The position numbers and the translations under genes are program-made. A stretch of 53,089 nt of DNA from Chloroflexota bacterium (lineage in GTDB: Bacteria; Chloroflexota; Limnocylindria; Limnocylindrales; CSP1-4). The stretch's first letter is position 1. The number at the start of each line of letters is the position of its first letter. Below the pieces are notes generated by a model, which saw nothing but the letters and a program-made list of their open reading frames with translations, did no database searches and had not been told where the DNA came from. Where the stretch lies: positions 1-53,089 of the forward strand of contig JBEPVB010000002.1 in NCBI GenBank assembly GCA_041691215.1, written 5' to 3'. This document shows, piece after piece, positions 31,576-37,747 of this stretch.

Positions 31576-32583
31576 ATGGTCCCGGCCATCGCCGCCCTGC
31601 CTCGATTCCGCCTCTTCAGCGACCCCAGCCCGTTCCATCGGCTGGAGCGGCTAGAGGCGGCCCTCGGCGGTCGGGCCGAGCTGTGGATGAAACGGGAGGA
31701 CCTCCTGCCGCTGGCCTTCGGCGGCAACAAGCTCCGCAACCTGGAGTTCCTCGTGGGGGCGGCGCTGGCCGAGGGCGCCGACACCCTCGTGACGTCGGGC
31801 CGACGCTGGTCGAACCATTGCCGGCTCACCGCGGCCGCCGGGGCGCGGGCAGGGCTCGCCGTCCACCTCGTTTTGTCTGGGCCGCCGGCCGTGGGGACGG
31901 GCCCGGACGGCGCCAATCCGGGACGGCGCCTCGATGAGCTCTTGGGCGCGAGCGTCAGCCAGCTGTCGACCGCCGATCGCGAGGCGCGTTCGGTAGCCGT
32001 CGATCAGCTCATGACCGAGCTCCGGACGCGCGGCCGCCGTCCCTATCTCATCCAGGTCGGCGGGACGGGCATGCCCGGCGCGGCCGGCCAGGTCCTGGCG
32101 GCGACCGAGCTGCTCGCCCAGGCAGCGTCAGTAGGGGAGCCGCTGGACGCTGTCGTCCTGCCGTCGGCAACCGGCGGAACACAGGCCGGGCTCCTAGCCG
32201 GGCTCCGGGCGAGCGGCAGCACCGCCGGCGTGCACGGGGTCCTCGTGGCCCGGGCGGATGCCGAGCTCCGGCCCGCGATCGAGGCGACGCTGCGGAGCCT
32301 CGAGCCGTACACCGGCCGGGCCGTCGACGCCGGCGAGGTCGACCTCGACGGAACACAGATCGGCGACGGCTACGGCCTCCCGACCGCTGCGGCGACCGCG
32401 GCGATGGAGCTCCTCGCTCGCTCGGAGGGCGTGTTCGTCGACCCGATCTACACGGCCAAGGCCCTCGCGGCGCTCGTGGCCGGCGTGCGCTCGGGCCGCT
32501 GGGACGGCCGGCGGGTCGTGTTCTGGCACGCCGGCGGCACGCCGGGCCTGTTCGAGCCGCTCGACGGTCCGCCGCGGTCCTAG
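31576..32583 (+). CDS. PLP-dependent 1-aminocyclopropane-1-carboxylate deaminase / D-cysteine desulfhydrase family protein
   Basis: ATG 31576. LWMKREDLLPLAFGGNKLRNLEFL (PLP-Lys motif), TSGRRWSNHCR, GGTQAG, YTAKA. Confidence 0.88.
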   Translation: MVPAIAALPRFRLFSDPSPFHRLERLEAALGGRAELWMKREDLLPLAFGGNKLRNLEFLVGAALAEGADTLVTSGRRWSNHCRLTAAAGARAGLAVHLVLSGPPAVGTGPDGANPGRRLDELLGASVSQLSTADREARSVAVDQLMTELRTRGRRPYLIQVGGTGMPGAAGQVLAATELLAQAASVGEPLDAVVLPSATGGTQAGLLAGLRASGSTAGVHGVLVARADAELRPAIEATLRSLEPYTGRAVDAGEVDLDGTQIGDGYGLPTAAATAAMELLARSEGVFVDPIYTAKALAALVAGVRSGRWDGRRVVFWHAGGTPGLFEPLDGPPRS

Positions 32584-32659
32584 GGTCGGGCGTACCCGCC
32601 CGGCTCGCGACCGCTTCGCTCGGCGTCGGCCCGCGCCGGGCAGGGCGGCCCGCGCCGGC

Positions 32660-33052
32660 TCAGTAGGCGAAGACCGTGCCCCACATGTCCGGGTGGACCT
32701 CGCAGAGGAAGAACCAGTTGCCCTTGGGAATCCCCACGGTCAGGACGACGGTCTTGCTCGATACCGCGTCGAAGCGAAACAGGAGGTCGCCGCCCGATCC
32801 CGACTGGGTCCGGATGGCGATGTTATGCAGGTCGCCATCCTCGTTGACGAAGACGAGGGGGAACTCCACACCGGCATGGACCTGGAGCTCCTTGGTGTCG
32901 AAAGCCCGGTCCTTGGCATGAACCACGATCGCCCCGGCCGGGATCGTCGGCGCGGGCGACGGCGCGCCACCACAGGCGGCGACGAGAATCGTGACGAGGG
33001 CCAGGACCGCGAATCGCCGGCGAGGGACCCCGCTGGCCGTCGGCTCGGGCAT
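32660..33052 (-). CDS. Cupredoxin (blue-copper, plastocyanin/amicyanin-like) lipoprotein
   Basis: ATG 33052 overlaps the greA-like stop (ATGA). Lipobox ILVAAC. Type-1 Cu ligands HNIAI ... CEVHPDMWG (His, Cys, His, Met). Confidence 0.8.
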   Translation of the reverse strand: MPEPTASGVPRRRFAVLALVTILVAACGGAPSPAPTIPAGAIVVHAKDRAFDTKELQVHAGVEFPLVFVNEDGDLHNIAIRTQSGSGGDLLFRFDAVSSKTVVLTVGIPKGNWFFLCEVHPDMWGTVFAY

Positions 33053-34341
33053 CAACGGACCTCCAGGACCCGGTAGCGGACAACGCCCCGGGGCGTCTGG
33101 ACTTCGACGTCCTGGTCCGCGGTCGCGCCCAGGAGGGCGGCGCCGACCGGCGAGGAGGAGCTGATCCGTCCCGCCGCCGGGTCGGCGTCGGTCGTGCCCA
33201 CGATGGCATAGGTGATCGTGTCGCCCTCGTGCTCGAGGACGACGGTCGAGCCGAGCTGGACCCGGCCCGAGCCGGTCTCGTCGATCAAGACGGCATGCCG
33301 CTTGCGCTCCTCGAGGAGCCGGATCCGGCCCTCCATGAACGACTGCTCCTCGCGAGCCGCCTGGTACTCGGCGTTCTCCTTGAGATCGCCATGCTCGCGC
33401 GCCGCCTTGATCCGGGCCACGACCTCGGGCCGGTTCTTGCGAGTGAGCACGGCCAGCTCGGCCTCGAGGCGGGCGTAGGCATCGCGGGTCATCGGCACGG
33501 GCTCGATCCGGGACGCCCGGGCCGCGGCAGCGCGGGAGGCCGGCGTGGAGGTCGAGCCGAGCGGCGGACGGGGTCGGCGTGGCGCGGCCGCCGCCCGGGC
33601 CGGCGCCGCGGCTCGCGGCGGACGGGGAGCGCGGCGGACGACGCCCGTCCCGCGAATCTCCCTCGAAGCGCCTTCGGCATCGCCGGCCGGGACCTCCACG
33701 ACGCGGCTCGCCGGGGGCGGCGGCGGGCTGTCGTCGGGCGCGATGGCACCGGTGATCCCGTGGACCTGCCGGTCGCCGATGGGGCGGCGGGTGTTGGCCC
33801 AGGGCAGGATGACCGCGCCGGGCGGCCGGGCTTCGTGGACACCGCCCGGCTCCGACGCGCCGGCCGCCGCGACCTCGGCAAAGGCGCCGAACAGGCCGTC
33901 GAGGTACTCCTCGGGCGCGTCGGTCTCGGCCCACCAGATCCGGGTCTTCTCGATCCCCGTCATCGCGTGCAGCCACTGGCCGTCCGGGTGCGGCCGCCGG
34001 TCGCCAAGGACATGATGGGCCAGGGCGTTGGCCCGCCCGCCGACGCTGCCGGCGGTGGCCCCGATGTAGAGGACCGTCTCCTTCGGCAGCCACAGCGAGG
34101 CGAGGCGGAGGAGGAGCGCCCGCGACGTCGGACGGGCGCCGTCGAGGCGAAGCTCTGGCCGGCCCTCCAGCCACTTGCCGATCCGATTCATGTCGAGCGG
34201 CACGGTCGCGAGTGGCTGGGCCAGCTCCACCAGGTAGACGCCGGACTTCCGGGATGTCAGGGGGCGACCCCAGAGCACGGGTCCGTCGGGCAAGAGGCCG
34301 ACCTCTCGCAACAGCCCGGCGGCTCCGTGGTCGATCGGCAT
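33052..34341 (-). CDS. greA: Transcription elongation factor GreA with a long N-terminal extension (GIY-YIG-like region plus Pro/Ala/Arg linker)
   Basis: The last 146 codons (from ATG 33492) are canonical GreA: MTRDAYARLEAELAVL, GDLKENAEYQAAREEQSFMEGRI, SSSSPVGAALLG. The frame stays open upstream to ATG 34341, which has GGAGGG 5 nt upstream. Whether GreA is also made from the internal ATG is unknown. Confidence 0.7.
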   Translation of the reverse strand: MPIDHGAAGLLREVGLLPDGPVLWGRPLTSRKSGVYLVELAQPLATVPLDMNRIGKWLEGRPELRLDGARPTSRALLLRLASLWLPKETVLYIGATAGSVGGRANALAHHVLGDRRPHPDGQWLHAMTGIEKTRIWWAETDAPEEYLDGLFGAFAEVAAAGASEPGGVHEARPPGAVILPWANTRRPIGDRQVHGITGAIAPDDSPPPPPASRVVEVPAGDAEGASREIRGTGVVRRAPRPPRAAAPARAAAAPRRPRPPLGSTSTPASRAAAARASRIEPVPMTRDAYARLEAELAVLTRKNRPEVVARIKAAREHGDLKENAEYQAAREEQSFMEGRIRLLEERKRHAVLIDETGSGRVQLGSTVVLEHEGDTITYAIVGTTDADPAAGRISSSSPVGAALLGATADQDVEVQTPRGVVRYRVLEVR

Positions 34342-34440
34342 CCAGCCCTCCAGCACGATGAATCCGGGAGTCACGCCCCGGGGGGCAGTATCGTCGCACC
34401 GATACCCCATCGCCGTCGCCCAAGGGAGGCCACCCTGCTC

Positions 34441-35772
34441 GTGGTCCGCCGCCGCGCCCTGGTCCTCGCTGCCGCGCTGCTGGCCATCGTGGCCGTCGCG
34501 GCGGGGATCGCAACGCTGCCATCGCTGGCAGGGATCCGCCCCGGCACCTCGACCGCGCCCTCGGCCAGCGGCGGGGCCGCCGCCGCGCCGACCCCCACCA
34601 CGAGCCCGTCGACGAAGACCGCCGCGCCTTCCGGCTCGCCGAGCGCGCCACCGCCGCCCGATGTCGCGATCCTCGATCGGACGGACATCCGGGCCCGGCT
34701 CCAGGCGGCTCTCGAGAAAGACCGTGTCGGGCTCTTCGCACCGGGGATGGTGGCCAGCGTCCTGTTCGCCGACGGGGGATCGTGGTCCGGGACGTCAGGG
34801 GTCGCGGACCTCGCCTCGGGGCGCGCCCTTTCGATCGACACGCCGTTCTCGATCGCCTCGATCAGCAAGACGTTCATGGCGGCCGAGGTCCTCGACCTCG
34901 TCGTCGCCGGATCGCTACGGCTCGAGGATTCGGCGGCCCGCCTCCTGCCCGGCGTCCTCGTCGGCAAGCTGCCGCTCGACCCGCGGATCACCGTCCGGGA
35001 GCTCCTCGACCACACCAGCGGGCTACGCGATTACCTGATCGACCACAGGCTCGGCCTCGCGGTCGAAGCGAATCCGCGACAACGGTGGACGCCGGCGATG
35101 GCCCTCGCGTATGCCGGCAAGCCCCTCGCGGCGCCCGGTGTCGGCTACCACTATGCGAACACGAACTACGTCCTCCTCGGGCTCATCGTCGAGCGCCTGA
35201 CCGGCCGGACGCTGGCCGAGGAATATCGGACGCGGTTCTTCGGGCCGCTCGGCCTCCGGTCGGCCTCGTACCAGGGCGTCGAGGCCCCGACCGCGAAGCT
35301 CCCGACCTCGTATCGCTACGCCTCGGTGAAGCGAAATGCCGTTCCCACATCAGTCGCTGATGGCACCTCGATCGGCCCGTTCACGTCCATCGTCACGGCC
35401 GCCGGCGCAGCCGGCTCGGTCGCCGCGAGCGCACCCGACCTGGCCCGCTGGGCCCGGGCCCTCTACGGCGGCGACGTCCTGCCACCCGGAGCGAGGCTGG
35501 CCATGCTATCGGACGCCGACGCGACTCTGACCCTGAAGCCCGGCTACCCCTATGGCCTCGGGGTCCAGGTCAATACGCTCGATGGCCGGATCTCGTACGG
35601 CCACTCCGGCCGTCTCGTGGGCGCGCGCAGCGCGGTCCGCTGGTTCCCCGAGGTCGGCGTCGCCATCGCCGTCGTGACCAACGAGAGCCGCTTCGATCCA
35701 GGGGTGGTCGTCCAGGACCTCCTCGCGGTGGTGGCCCCCAGGACGTTCGCCGGCGGCTTCCGGGAGCGCTGA
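34441..35772 (+). CDS. Serine hydrolase, beta-lactamase / D-alanyl-D-alanine carboxypeptidase family, membrane-anchored
   Basis: In-frame GTG 34441 (VVRRRALVLAAALLAIVAV anchor). Ser/Thr/Pro-rich linker. SxxK active site FSIASISKTF. YxN motif YHYANTNYVLLG. HSGRLVG. Confidence 0.85.
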   Translation: MVRRRALVLAAALLAIVAVAAGIATLPSLAGIRPGTSTAPSASGGAAAAPTPTTSPSTKTAAPSGSPSAPPPPDVAILDRTDIRARLQAALEKDRVGLFAPGMVASVLFADGGSWSGTSGVADLASGRALSIDTPFSIASISKTFMAAEVLDLVVAGSLRLEDSAARLLPGVLVGKLPLDPRITVRELLDHTSGLRDYLIDHRLGLAVEANPRQRWTPAMALAYAGKPLAAPGVGYHYANTNYVLLGLIVERLTGRTLAEEYRTRFFGPLGLRSASYQGVEAPTAKLPTSYRYASVKRNAVPTSVADGTSIGPFTSIVTAAGAAGSVAASAPDLARWARALYGGDVLPPGARLAMLSDADATLTLKPGYPYGLGVQVNTLDGRISYGHSGRLVGARSAVRWFPEVGVAIAVVTNESRFDPGVVVQDLLAVVAPRTFAGGFRER

Positions 35773-35917
35773 CCCCCGACGCCGGGCTTTCGGTGCGGCA
35801 CGGAACCGGATTCTTCGGTCGCGGTACGACCGCCTGCCCCGTCCGGTACCGATGGGGCTTCTTCAACGGGGGCGCGACCCCGATGCTCGCCCGGCAGGAT
35901 CGATTCGGGGGGCGCCA

Positions 35918-36430
35918 ATGCAGCAGGTCGAGGCCTTCACCGCCGGGGGCGTGGTGAGCGGGGCCGTCGCGGAGTCAGGCAGGCTTCGGGACGGCCTCGA
36001 GACCGCCGGGCCGTTCGACGTCGACGCGGCCACCTGGTATCCGATCGCCGGCGGGGCGGCGGAGCCTCGCCACCGGATCCACCTCGAGCAGGATGACCTG
36101 CTCGTCCTGTGTGCCGAAACCGAGGACCTGCCCATCCATGCCACATGGCACGCGGTCGAGCTCGACATCGGGCCGTACCACCTGACCGGCGAGCTGCCGA
36201 CGATGCCGGGCTTCGATCCGGGGCGAGCCCTGTCGCGGCCCGGTGGCCCGTTCATCCTCCTCCGCGACGTGCGCGTCGACCTGCTCGGGCATCCGGAGGG
36301 CGGCAGCGTCGAGCGCCGGCACGCCCTCGTGAATCGCTACGCGGTGGAGCGGGTCGCGGCCGACATCGAGCTCGGCTACTACTTCCCGGGCGCCCACTTC
36401 AGCACGGCGGGCGGGCGGGTCCTCAGCTGA
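35918..36430 (+). CDS. Hypothetical protein, paralogue of the 4910-5560 product
   Basis: ATG 35918 (MQQVEAF). Collinear similarity to the 4910 protein: SGRLRDGL / SGRLLDLL, TWYPIAGG / HWAPVDGS, DDLLVL / YDLIVA, HAVELDIGPYHLTGEL / HKVSFDVAAEAPPYRIVGTI, PGFDPGRAL / PGSEPESLL, ALVNRYAV / VLVNRFYL. Confidence 0.6.
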   Translation: MQQVEAFTAGGVVSGAVAESGRLRDGLETAGPFDVDAATWYPIAGGAAEPRHRIHLEQDDLLVLCAETEDLPIHATWHAVELDIGPYHLTGELPTMPGFDPGRALSRPGGPFILLRDVRVDLLGHPEGGSVERRHALVNRYAVERVAADIELGYYFPGAHFSTAGGRVLS

Positions 36431-36481: not shown

Positions 36482-37747
36482 CTAGGTCCGGGATCCGCTC
36501 CCGGAGCGCGGCCGGCCGGCCGCCCGGTTGGGATAGTGATGACCCCGGGCCGGGCGCGTCTCGAGCGCTCCGCCCCGAAGCGGCTGCGGCTCGGCATTCC
36601 GATCCGGCACGAAGCCGTCCTCGACCTTCCACGGGATGGCCTGCTTCAGGAGCCGCTGGACGCCCCGCAGGAGGTCGGCCTCGTCGATGGAGACGAGGCT
36701 CACGGCGTCACCCGTCGCGCCCGCCCGCCCGGTCCGCCCGATGCGGTGGATGTAGTCCTGGGCCTGCCATGGCAGCTCGAAGTTGACGACATGGGGGAGA
36801 TCCTCGATGTCGAGGCCGCGGGCGGCGACGTCGGTCGCCACGAGGACCCGGATCGTGCCGGCCTTGAAGCCCTCGAGGGCCCGGGTCCGCTCCGGCTGGC
36901 TCCGGTCCGAGTGGATGGCCACGGCCTCCAGGCCTCGCCGGTCGAGATAGGTGGCCAGGCGGGAGGCGCCGATCTTGGTCCGGGTGAAGACGAGTACCTG
37001 ACGCCACTCCTCCCTGGCGATGAGATGGGCGAGGAGGGCCTCCTTGCGATCGCGATCGACCGGGTAGACGAGCTGCCGGATCGCCTCGACCGTCGTGTTC
37101 CGCCGGGCGACCTCGACGATCTCGGGGTCCCGAAGGATCGTCCCCGACAGCCGCCGGATGTCGTCCGAGAAGGTGGCCGAGAACATCAGGTTCTGCCGTC
37201 GGGGCGGGAGGAGGGCGATGATCTTCTGGATGTCCGGCAGGAAGCCCATGTCGAGCATCCGGTCGGCCTCGTCGAGGACGAGGATCTCGACCTGGCTCAG
37301 GTTCACCGTCTTCTGGCCGACGTGGTCCAGGAGGCGGCCCGGGGTCGCGACGAGGAGCTCGACGCCGGCCCGGAGCTCCTTCGTCTGGGGCTCGATAGGG
37401 ATGCCCCCGAAGACGACTGCCGGCCGCAGCGACACCGTGCGGCCATAGGTGGTCACGCTCTCGTCGACCTGCATCGCGAGCTCCCGGGTCGGAACGAGGA
37501 TCAGGCAGCGAACCGGGTGGCGGGCCGGCGAGAAGGACGTGTTGGCATGCTTCCGGAGGCGATCCAGGATCGGCAGGACGAAGGCGGCCGTCTTACCGGT
37601 TCCGGTCTGGGCCGCCGCGAGGACGTCGCGACCGGCGAGCACGTGGGGGATGGCGGCGGCCTGCACGGGCGTTGGCTCGGTGTAACCCTCTTCGGCCACC
37701 ATCCCGATGAGATCGGCCGACAGGCCGAGCGTTTCGAAGGACAACAA
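36482..37747 (-). CDS. rhlE: DEAD-box ATP-dependent RNA helicase (RhlE-like)
   Basis: Q-motif [40 protein letters not shown]. Confidence 0.93.
   Translation of the reverse strand: MLSFETLGLSADLIGMVAEEGYTEPTPVQAAAIPHVLAGRDVLAAAQTGTGKTAAFVLPILDRLRKHANTSFSPARHPVRCLILVPTRELAMQVDESVTTYGRTVSLRPAVVFGGIPIEPQTKELRAGVELLVATPGRLLDHVGQKTVNLSQVEILVLDEADRMLDMGFLPDIQKIIALLPPRRQNLMFSATFSDDIRRLSGTILRDPEIVEVARRNTTVEAIRQLVYPVDRDRKEALLAHLIAREEWRQVLVFTRTKIGASRLATYLDRRGLEAVAIHSDRSQPERTRALEGFKAGTIRVLVATDVAARGLDIEDLPHVVNFELPWQAQDYIHRIGRTGRAGATGDAVSLVSIDEADLLRGVQRLLKQAIPWKVEDGFVPDRNAEPQPLRGGALETRPARGHHYPNRAAGRPRSGSGSRT

Follow-up and report, generated by a model that had tools for sequence, protein, structure and literature searches.

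A GreA transcript cleavage factor tethered to a conserved, probably GIY-YIG-related N-terminal domain in Limnocylindria-class Chloroflexota

We analysed a window of 53,089 nucleotides (contig JBEPVB010000002.1, positions 1-53089, from the Chloroflexota bacterium assembly GCA_041691215.1), in which one gene on the minus strand encodes a GreA transcript cleavage factor behind a long N-terminal extension. The gene (33052..34341) has 429 codons followed by a TGA stop at 33052-33054, as given by the list of open reading frames, the sequence, and the same single-frame layout in 47 genomes. Its product consists of three parts: a globular alpha/beta N-domain (ND, residues 1-203, 33733..34341), a disordered polybasic tether of proline, alanine and arginine (residues 204-283, 33493..33732), and a complete GreA (residues 284-429, 33055..33492), all on the minus strand. 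Gre factors are textbook examples of small, single-purpose proteins, which occupy the secondary channel of the RNA polymerase and stimulate transcript cleavage, and an ordinary GreA stands alone, with ~155-160 residues (~158). Here the protein has 429 residues, 283 of which precede the GreA module in the same frame. An earlier description of this DNA, made from its letters alone and called the sequence-only reading below, had proposed a GreA fused to a module resembling the GIY-YIG nucleases.

From ATG 34341 down to the stop (TGA, 33054-33052 in the direction of reading) the frame is uninterrupted, as that reading had stated. The earliest in-frame ATG lies at 34410 and would give a protein of 452 residues. 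From the sequence, ATG 34341 appears to be the better start, because a Shine-Dalgarno-like GGAGGG (34346..34351, minus strand) is located 4 nt 5' of it, homologues start at the equivalent position, and a divergent neighbour begins near 34441. The spacing had first been counted as 5 nt. The neighbour is a beta-lactamase-like gene with a start at ~34441 and its own AAGGGAGG Shine-Dalgarno, and ~100 bp of intergenic DNA remains. A scan of 32500-34700 for promoters and terminators found none, which is uninformative at this G+C.

Judged by profiles and by the predicted structure, residues 284-429 are a bona fide, complete GreA, and we take the gene to be the GreA orthologue of this Limnocylindria-class Chloroflexota bacterium. 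The Pfam models GreA_GreB_N (PF03449) and GreA_GreB (PF01272) match with 88.3 and 71.9 bits, both far over their cut-offs. The NCBIfam equivalog NF001263 matches with 154.4 bits (cut-off 145) and TIGR01462 with 150.4 bits (cut-off 139), and the NCBIfam models of GreB score far under their cut-offs. A profile search of the PDB matches E. coli GreA, 1GRJ, at 2e-39, and the modelled GreA part superimposes on the same structure with a TM-score of 0.89, a root mean square deviation of 1.6 Å and 41% identity (Foldseek). The module contains the coiled-coil, the acidic tip GDLKENAEY (residues 318-326, 33364-33390) and the C-terminal globular domain. The GDLxEN motif is kept in 47/47 orthologues, and its acidic residues correspond to D41 and E44 at the tip of the coiled-coil in E. 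coli GreA. Compared with 1GRJ, the protein is alike in both Pfam domains, in the equivalog score and in the acidic tip, and it differs by the additional N-terminal residues. The last 146 codons, starting from ATG 33492, had been recognised as GreA before, and the profiles and the superposition agree with this.

To find out how widespread the extension is, we searched a protein database with the N-terminal 227 residues and obtained 89 protein clusters, most of ~385-398 residues and with both GreA Pfam domains. A scan of one genome per species gave 51 loci, nearly all from Chloroflexota metagenome-assembled genomes (MAGs), many of them labelled Limnocylindria or Limnocylindrales; one of the loci, L043, is part of the 3.56-Mb contig CAVTPA010000001.1. 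ND and GreA lie in one frame with zero stops in 47 species-level genomes, across linkers of 51-145 residues. That the frame is kept through so many insertions and deletions in the linker argues for selection for read-through. The exceptions to the single frame are frameshifts inside the conserved domains in long-read 'contig_' assemblies, where the neighbouring genes are broken too; between the two parts, neither a stop nor a frameshift was found in the 47 genomes. The fusion thus holds as a real single open reading frame. The median identity to the protein of the window, taken over 46 species, is 47% for ND and 52% for GreA; ND appears to be about as conserved as GreA and under similar purifying selection. 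According to these comparisons, ND, tether and GreA are shown to be encoded, and are predicted to be translated, as one polypeptide, which represents what seems to be a class-wide, vertically inherited architecture in uncultured Chloroflexota.

It is also conceivable that the long frame is not a functional unit, that GreA is made from the internal ATG 33492, and that the upstream frame is a separate product or is kept open by the high G+C or by a sequencing error. The window does have an ATG exactly at the GreA boundary, and the closest GreA matches in the protein database, many of them public calls of the closest relatives, are proteins of 138-175 residues. However, this ATG is missing in 44/47 orthologues and present in 3/47, so that separate initiation of GreA is not conserved, although the sequence-only reading had considered it. 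The short calls we checked are due to a contig end (L059), to error-ridden long-read contigs (L057, L058) or to the annotator's choice of an internal methionine (L060). The frame is further kept through linkers of many lengths, the amino acid sequence of ND is conserved, and translation of ND would run into GreA without meeting a stop. We therefore consider this explanation extremely improbable for the family. In this particular strain an additional internal start might still be used.

The same checks show how the fusion is represented in public data. Many database 'GreA' entries of the fused clade, of 138-146 residues in the loci examined, are truncated calls from an internal methionine. At L060 (GCA_005889475.1, VBGT01000011.1, 540-2372) an internal-methionine GreA is called and the upstream in-frame ND is unannotated, and L057 and L059 are similar. 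Calls in which ND and GreA seem to be 'split' (P0018, P0034, P0243, P0245, P0276) were considered as separate genes and rejected, as they are explained by long-read indels, contig ends and the choice of start. One MAG, MFD09779.bin.2.43, carries ND-GreA twice, at distinct loci that lie on separate large contigs (L025, L030), which may be two paralogues or two strains in the bin.

An AlphaFold2 model of the full-length protein shows two confident domains, separated by residues ~205-280 at low confidence (predicted local distance difference test, pLDDT, below 50; residues 219-278 in the feature assignment), i.e. beads on a string. We looked for a docking of ND on GreA or on a linker motif in this model, and no confident arrangement was obtained (predicted TM-score, pTM, 0.52). 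The segment has an isoelectric point of 11.9 and a net charge of +7, in agreement with the ~80-residue Pro/Ala/Arg linker that had been noted behind ~200 upstream codons. The linkers of the orthologues have a median isoelectric point of 12 and a median net charge of +10, and their sequences are highly divergent and always in frame. A linker motif, RVVEVPAGDAEGA, at 33667-33705 on the minus strand is common to some subclades only. It takes the form R-V-V-x-V/L-P-x-G-D-A-E/D-G-A in L004-L009, L012, L016 and many matches of the protein search. The linkers of other subclades carry different short motifs, e.g. VKRSD...RSPRRTA and GVLRSRTALK.

The ~200 residues upstream of the linker had been described as globular, and the predicted fold is in agreement with this. 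AlphaFold2, run on residues 1-207 with 73 homologues, gives a model with a pLDDT of 93.7 and a pTM of 0.90. The predicted elements are helices 7-13, 51-60, 73-82, 100-108, 122-126 and 143-162, and strands 19-23, 34-39, 90-96 and 134-139. The motifs quoted in the sequence-only reading are found at residues 33-40, 89-110 and 134-148. The first, SGVYLVEL (34222..34245), forms the candidate 'GIY' strand, with Tyr36 at 34234-34236, and aligns with PGVY/PGCY of UvrC. It is followed by an insert of ~48 residues (41-88, 34078..34221), consisting of two helices and a short hairpin, and by the candidate 'YIG' strand and Arg helix TVLYIGATAGSVGGRANALAHH (residues 89-110, 34012..34077), with Tyr92, Gly94 and Arg103, which aligns with TVIYVGKAKSLKERVRSYF of UvrC. 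The third is a motif of the fused clade, R134-I-W-W-A-E-T-D-A-P-E-E-Y-L-D148 (33898..33942), in which Leu147 is located at 33901-33903. Two motifs of the whole family, LPWAN (Asn183) and HGITG (His194), lie near the C-terminus of ND (33748..33807). All are on the minus strand.

Searched on its own, the ND of the window matches no model. Neither Pfam nor NCBIfam gives a match up to E = 1, and Pfam gives none up to E = 10; PADLOC reports nothing at threshold for ND and its relatives. Foldseek of the ND model against the PDB finds no match below E = 1 and no solved GIY-YIG structure, so the structural check that had been proposed yielded a confident fold and no structural relative. In the viral library of Foldseek one uncharacterised phage protein is found at E = 4e-3, and a T4-type endonuclease II at rank 17 with E = 1.3.

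The relatives of ND are more informative. No curated GIY-YIG model matches any of 75 relatives at threshold, the best value being E ~0.003; the commonest sub-threshold Pfam matches all belong to the GIY-YIG clan (GIY_YIG_2 in eight, GIY-YIG in five, GIY_YIG_domain in two, T5orf172 in one). Among the sub-threshold NCBIfam matches of the same proteins, UvrC (TIGR00194) is the commonest, with 14 members and a best E of 0.0027, and the Cho-like PRK07883 is found too. The only relevant match of the family profile in the PDB is UvrC, 1YD6, at E = 0.19, where TVlYiGlagtSLrkRVrqYy is aligned to TVIYVGKA-KSLKERVRSYF.

We then compared the family profile with profiles of the UvrC N-domain by hhalign. 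Against three PDB-verified UvrC sequences the comparison gives a probability of 86.8% (score 39.2), and against 104 database sequences 91.9% (score 43.2) over 55 columns, which cover the YIG strand, the Arg helix, strand 3 and the Glu helix. When residues ~40-88 are removed, the value increases to 95.2% (score 49.0) and PGVY then aligns with PGcY; as we chose the boundaries of this deletion ourselves, the 95.2% leans to the hypothesis, and the 91.9% of the undeleted profile stands alone. The controls reach 2.1% (score 18.7) for a reversed UvrC profile and at most 0.8% (score 16.0) for 20 column shuffles. A profile of the fused NDs only obtains 33% (score 28.4) against UvrC, therefore membership of the superfamily rests on transitive homology. 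The fused clade is connected to its non-fused relatives at E values of 1e-19 to 1e-30.

The layout of the protein can be compared with that of GIY-YIG domains element by element. Both the GIY-type tyrosine (Y36 in SGVYLVEL) and the YIG-type Tyr-x-Gly (Y92 and G94 in LYIG) are present in the protein of the window. The two tyrosines are separated by 55 residues, in place of the ~10-11 of the GIY-YIG motif. The unusually long insert between them had been noticed from the letters, and its removal is what raises the hhalign value. R103, located on the helix that follows YIG, does not vary in any of the alignments and pairs with the arginine of UvrC in RVRSY. The predicted order E34-39, E90-96, H100-108, H122-126, E134-139, H143-162 fits the beta-beta-alpha-alpha-beta-alpha arrangement. 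N183 follows a variable loop of ~20 residues, and no alignment places it on N88 of UvrC.

Taken together, ND very probably belongs to the GIY-YIG superfamily, as a divergent UvrC-like branch, and the main caveat is the lack of fold-level confirmation. The GIY-YIG resemblance claimed before thus holds as descent, through the family profile (91.9% versus controls of at most 2.1%), and does not hold as a match of the protein itself to a GIY-YIG model. The alternative is a new fold with another function, e.g. regulation or protein binding, in which the PGVY and LYIGxA..R motifs are convergent with UvrC. It would account for the missing Pfam, NCBIfam and PDB sequence matches of ND, for the empty PDB Foldseek result despite a very confident model, and for the short confident core of the hhalign match, which spans just ~23-55 columns. 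We regard it as very unlikely, given hhalign values of 92-95% against at most 2% in the controls, the GIY-YIG superfamily as the commonest weak match in independent libraries, and the predicted order of elements together with the invariant Y, Y, R, H, E and N of the non-fused family, which fit the GIY-YIG layout.

Compared with the GIY-YIG domain of UvrC/Cho (1YD0, 1YD6; PF01541), the ND family shares PGVY...(V/I)LY(I/V)G(K)A..SL..R(V)..YY, the following strand and the Glu-bearing helix. There are ~10 residues between GIY and YIG in UvrC, whereas ND has a ~50-residue insert. ND is further extended by a hairpin at the N-terminus and by a PFAN/HG segment at the C-terminus, is without the UvrB-binding, RNase H-like and HhH domains of UvrC, and in the window has a leucine at the position of the invariant glutamate. 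We also looked for UvrC in the 12-kb loci around ND genes, for GIY-YIG sequences of the same clade, and found none.

The ND family is large. A profile search of 1.84 billion representatives gives 1404 clusters at E <= 1e-3 and 470 at E <= 1e-30. The members that we looked up are annotated as 'hypothetical protein', and there is no curated model for the family. Besides ND-linker-GreA, the architectures include a stand-alone form of ~200 residues and forms with an unassigned ~85-residue tail, with a HARE-HTH-like tail (helix-turn-helix, HTH; E 0.008-0.26) or with an HTH_17-like tail. Whether the extension also occurs as a separate gene had been asked before, and both answers apply: it is fused to GreA in the 47 genomes and is found stand-alone or HTH-tailed elsewhere in the family. 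Non-fused ND genes are located beside HTH/Peptidase_M78 regulators, in an McrBC island, beside RecBCD and, for WP_157681613.1, on the Mycobacterium sp. JS623 plasmid pMYCSM02, which suggests mobile-element or defence contexts.

Some of these forms deserve mention in their own right. At three loci (L003, L055, L056) and one JGI locus, the non-fused ND gene adjoins an HTH_3/HTH_31 gene, with Peptidase_M78 (ImmA/IrrE-type) in three of the four, and McrBC, AAA_15/23 ATPases or RecBCD are also near. In many ND proteins of ~300-340 residues (e.g. P0147, P0165, P0177, P0190, P0206, P0227) the C-terminal ~85 residues share QRVTxxDlxxGrIRIP...LRG...WDPRxGPdReRSGvL. This module has no Pfam match and may be a new DNA-binding domain. 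We considered assigning the tail (QRVT..D..G.IRIP..) to the B3/EcoRII-N-like DNA-binding domains, found no Pfam support for this, and left it unassigned. A gene in a Chloroflexota MAG (L047, 6001-6870) has the fused-clade motif RVWWAETDAPEEYED in its ND and an HTH_17-like tail (...GRWAIRCARRG) in place of GreA, which hints at a relative of the ancestor of the fusion.

To compare the putative active site in free and fused forms, we made a residue census of 68 non-fused representatives and 48 GreA-fused proteins, in the numbering of the window protein. Y36, Y92, R103, H118, E147, N183 and H194 are invariant in 68/68 non-fused proteins, as are P180 and A182, and the first six resemble the Tyr, Tyr, Arg, His, Glu and Asn set of GIY-YIG. 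As these seven putative active-site residues are kept and the proteins have HTH-like tails or plasmid or defence-like settings, the non-fused relatives are probably active DNA endonucleases.

In the GreA-fused proteins the complete Y-Y-R-H-E-N-H set is kept in 6/48, L010 being one example, and broken in 42/48. Position 36 is tyrosine in 22, phenylalanine in 22 and leucine in three; position 147 is glutamate in 37, leucine in seven, alanine in two, and aspartate and glutamine in one each. N183 is kept in 44/48 and H194 in 21/48. The breaks differ by subclade: F36 together with T194 marks the largest subgroup, Y118 is found in others, and L147 in the window protein and the proteins closest to it. 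The window protein keeps Y36, Y92, R103, H118, N183 and H194, and the family-invariant glutamate, which would be the metal-binding Glu of GIY-YIG, is Leu147, flanked by E144, E145 and D148. The sequence-only reading had placed the catalytic glutamate in IWWAETDAPEEYL, however the residue that is glutamate in all non-fused proteins aligns with Leu147. Other positions show the opposite pattern. The motif RxWWAETDAPEEYxD is conserved in 48/48 or 47/48 fused proteins at nearly every position except 135 and 147, and E39 and D19-G-P behave like the R134-D148 motif, being shared by 46-48 of 48 fused proteins and variable elsewhere. The fused clade looks like a case of relaxed catalytic constraint combined with a new constraint. 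With the putative catalytic residues degenerate in most of the GreA fusions, it is doubtful that 'nuclease' describes a present-day activity.

On balance, we lean towards ND being derived from a DNA endonuclease and exapted, probably without catalysis, as a module that is tethered to the polymerase via GreA and modifies the action of GreA. The GreA part would bind the secondary channel and stimulate transcript cleavage as usual. From what is known of Gre factors, its N-terminus, hence the tether and ND, would be outside the channel near the rim, and ND would stay close to the polymerase and its nucleic acids, on a tether some tens of residues long. There, most likely without canonical GIY-YIG nuclease function, ND has probably come to serve in binding, either of nucleic acid or of the polymerase. 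Acting with the polybasic tether, it would change the sites at which GreA takes hold of elongation complexes that have stalled or backtracked, or the strength of this contact.

Several observations weigh against this interpretation. Six fused species keep the full set, the fused clade hardly varies at Tyr92, Arg103 and Asn183, and the many acidic residues beside position 147 could indicate an altered yet active centre. The missing fold-level confirmation, including the PDB and viral Foldseek results, and the 33% of the fused-only profile count here as well. Finally, all members are from uncultured organisms and the support is computational.

Some of these points favour an ND that is still an active endonuclease, delivered by GreA, and that cuts DNA (e.g. 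at lesions, R-loops or head-on conflicts) or extruded RNA near stalled or backtracked complexes; transcription-coupled incision would then be built into the protein. ND descends from UvrC-type GIY-YIG nucleases, Y92, R103 and N183 are nearly invariant, six of the 48 fused proteins have the full set, and the window protein keeps six residues of it, with the invariant E144, E145 and D148 as possible replacements for the lost glutamate. There is also a precedent, as predicted conflict systems combine effector nucleases with GreA/B-C domains (PMC8195603). However, the set is broken in most fused proteins at positions that vary by subclade (F36 and T194, L147, Y118), as expected for relaxed catalytic constraint; an unregulated nuclease on every elongating polymerase would be hazardous; and no conserved repair genes are found nearby. 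Catalysis therefore appears rather unlikely to us. A more specific version is quite unlikely: the fusion as the sole GreA of Limnocylindria with a working tethered GIY-YIG endonuclease, whose acidic centre is remodelled at WWAETDAPEEYxD and which incises at stalled or backtracked complexes. If true, a single protein would carry out a form of transcription-coupled incision, with transcript cleavage and the cutting of nucleic acid directly linked.

The fusion would be surprising to transcription specialists, and the signs favour a decayed active site. The architecture suggests that a whole bacterial lineage has something extra wired to the secondary channel of its polymerase, which could serve to sense lesions or nucleic acid, to strengthen recruitment or even to cut. 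The protein would be a concrete, expressible object for asking how the rescue of backtracked complexes and DNA transactions are physically coupled. ND also points to a large unannotated GIY-YIG branch of more than 1400 clusters. This branch amounts to a clean natural experiment, as free and HTH-tailed members keep all putative catalytic residues, whereas the set decays upon fusion to GreA. In practical terms, public annotations often miss the fusion through internal-methionine GreA calls.

Long N-terminal extensions of GreA are known from Chlamydiae and Spirochaetes, where GreA is likewise C-terminal (NF004969, 'transcript cleavage factor/unknown domain fusion protein', 718 positions; NF011309, 906 positions). 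The window protein matches only the GreA portions of these models (positions 569-704 and 753-900), with 57 and 81 bits against cut-offs of 697 and 714, and their N-terminal parts of ~560-750 residues are unrelated to ND and much longer. Our literature search on GreA with GIY-YIG, UvrC or an N-terminal extension found no description of the fusion. The proposal of a new architecture stands in so far as no paper on a GreA-GIY-YIG/UvrC fusion was found, but N-terminally extended GreA is a class already known from these two models.

A related idea has been described by Kaur, Burroughs, Iyer and Aravind (2021), who predicted conflict systems composed of a variable effector (REase, HNH, TIR and others) with TPR, GreA/B-C and PIN (PMC8195603). 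Common to both is a Gre-type polymerase-binding domain that recruits effectors, including DNases. The conflict systems have the GreA/B C-domain alone together with TPR and PIN, and are rapidly evolving and sporadic, whereas the protein of the window has a full GreA with the coiled-coil, stable synteny and class-wide vertical conservation. Pfam and NCBIfam give no TPR or PIN match in the window protein, which ends with the GreA C-domain.

The downstream neighbour of the fusion gene encodes a cupredoxin lipoprotein (32660..33052, minus strand; Cupredoxin_1 28.2 bits, cut-off 27; lipobox). Its ATG (33052-33050) overlaps the GreA stop as TGATG with one shared base, the A at 33052, and not as the ATGA reported at first. 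The sequence-only reading had seen a blue-copper lipoprotein as the operon partner; a lipobox cupredoxin is indeed encoded, but the partnership is not conserved beyond the closest relatives. Among more than 50 loci, a downstream cupredoxin homologue is found in just three: it directly follows the fusion gene in L004 and L059 and lies ~0.8 kb further away in L013. We therefore rejected the cupredoxin coupling as part of the system and regard the gene as an incidental neighbour.

In the wider surroundings, the ND-GreA locus appears to be a stable chromosomal neighbourhood and not a mobile island. No tRNA genes and no Rfam families at the gathering threshold were found across the 53-kb window (1-53089). 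The beta-lactamase-like gene is present in 11 of the 51 loci. A DEAD-box RNA helicase (36482-37747 in the window, minus strand) is encoded 2-4 kb upstream of ND-GreA on the same strand in 32/51 loci (among L004-L053), so that the synteny of these two genes, both concerned with RNA, is conserved. Between the beta-lactamase-like gene and the helicase lies an open reading frame of 192 residues (35852-36430, plus strand), with homologues at the same place in seven related loci.

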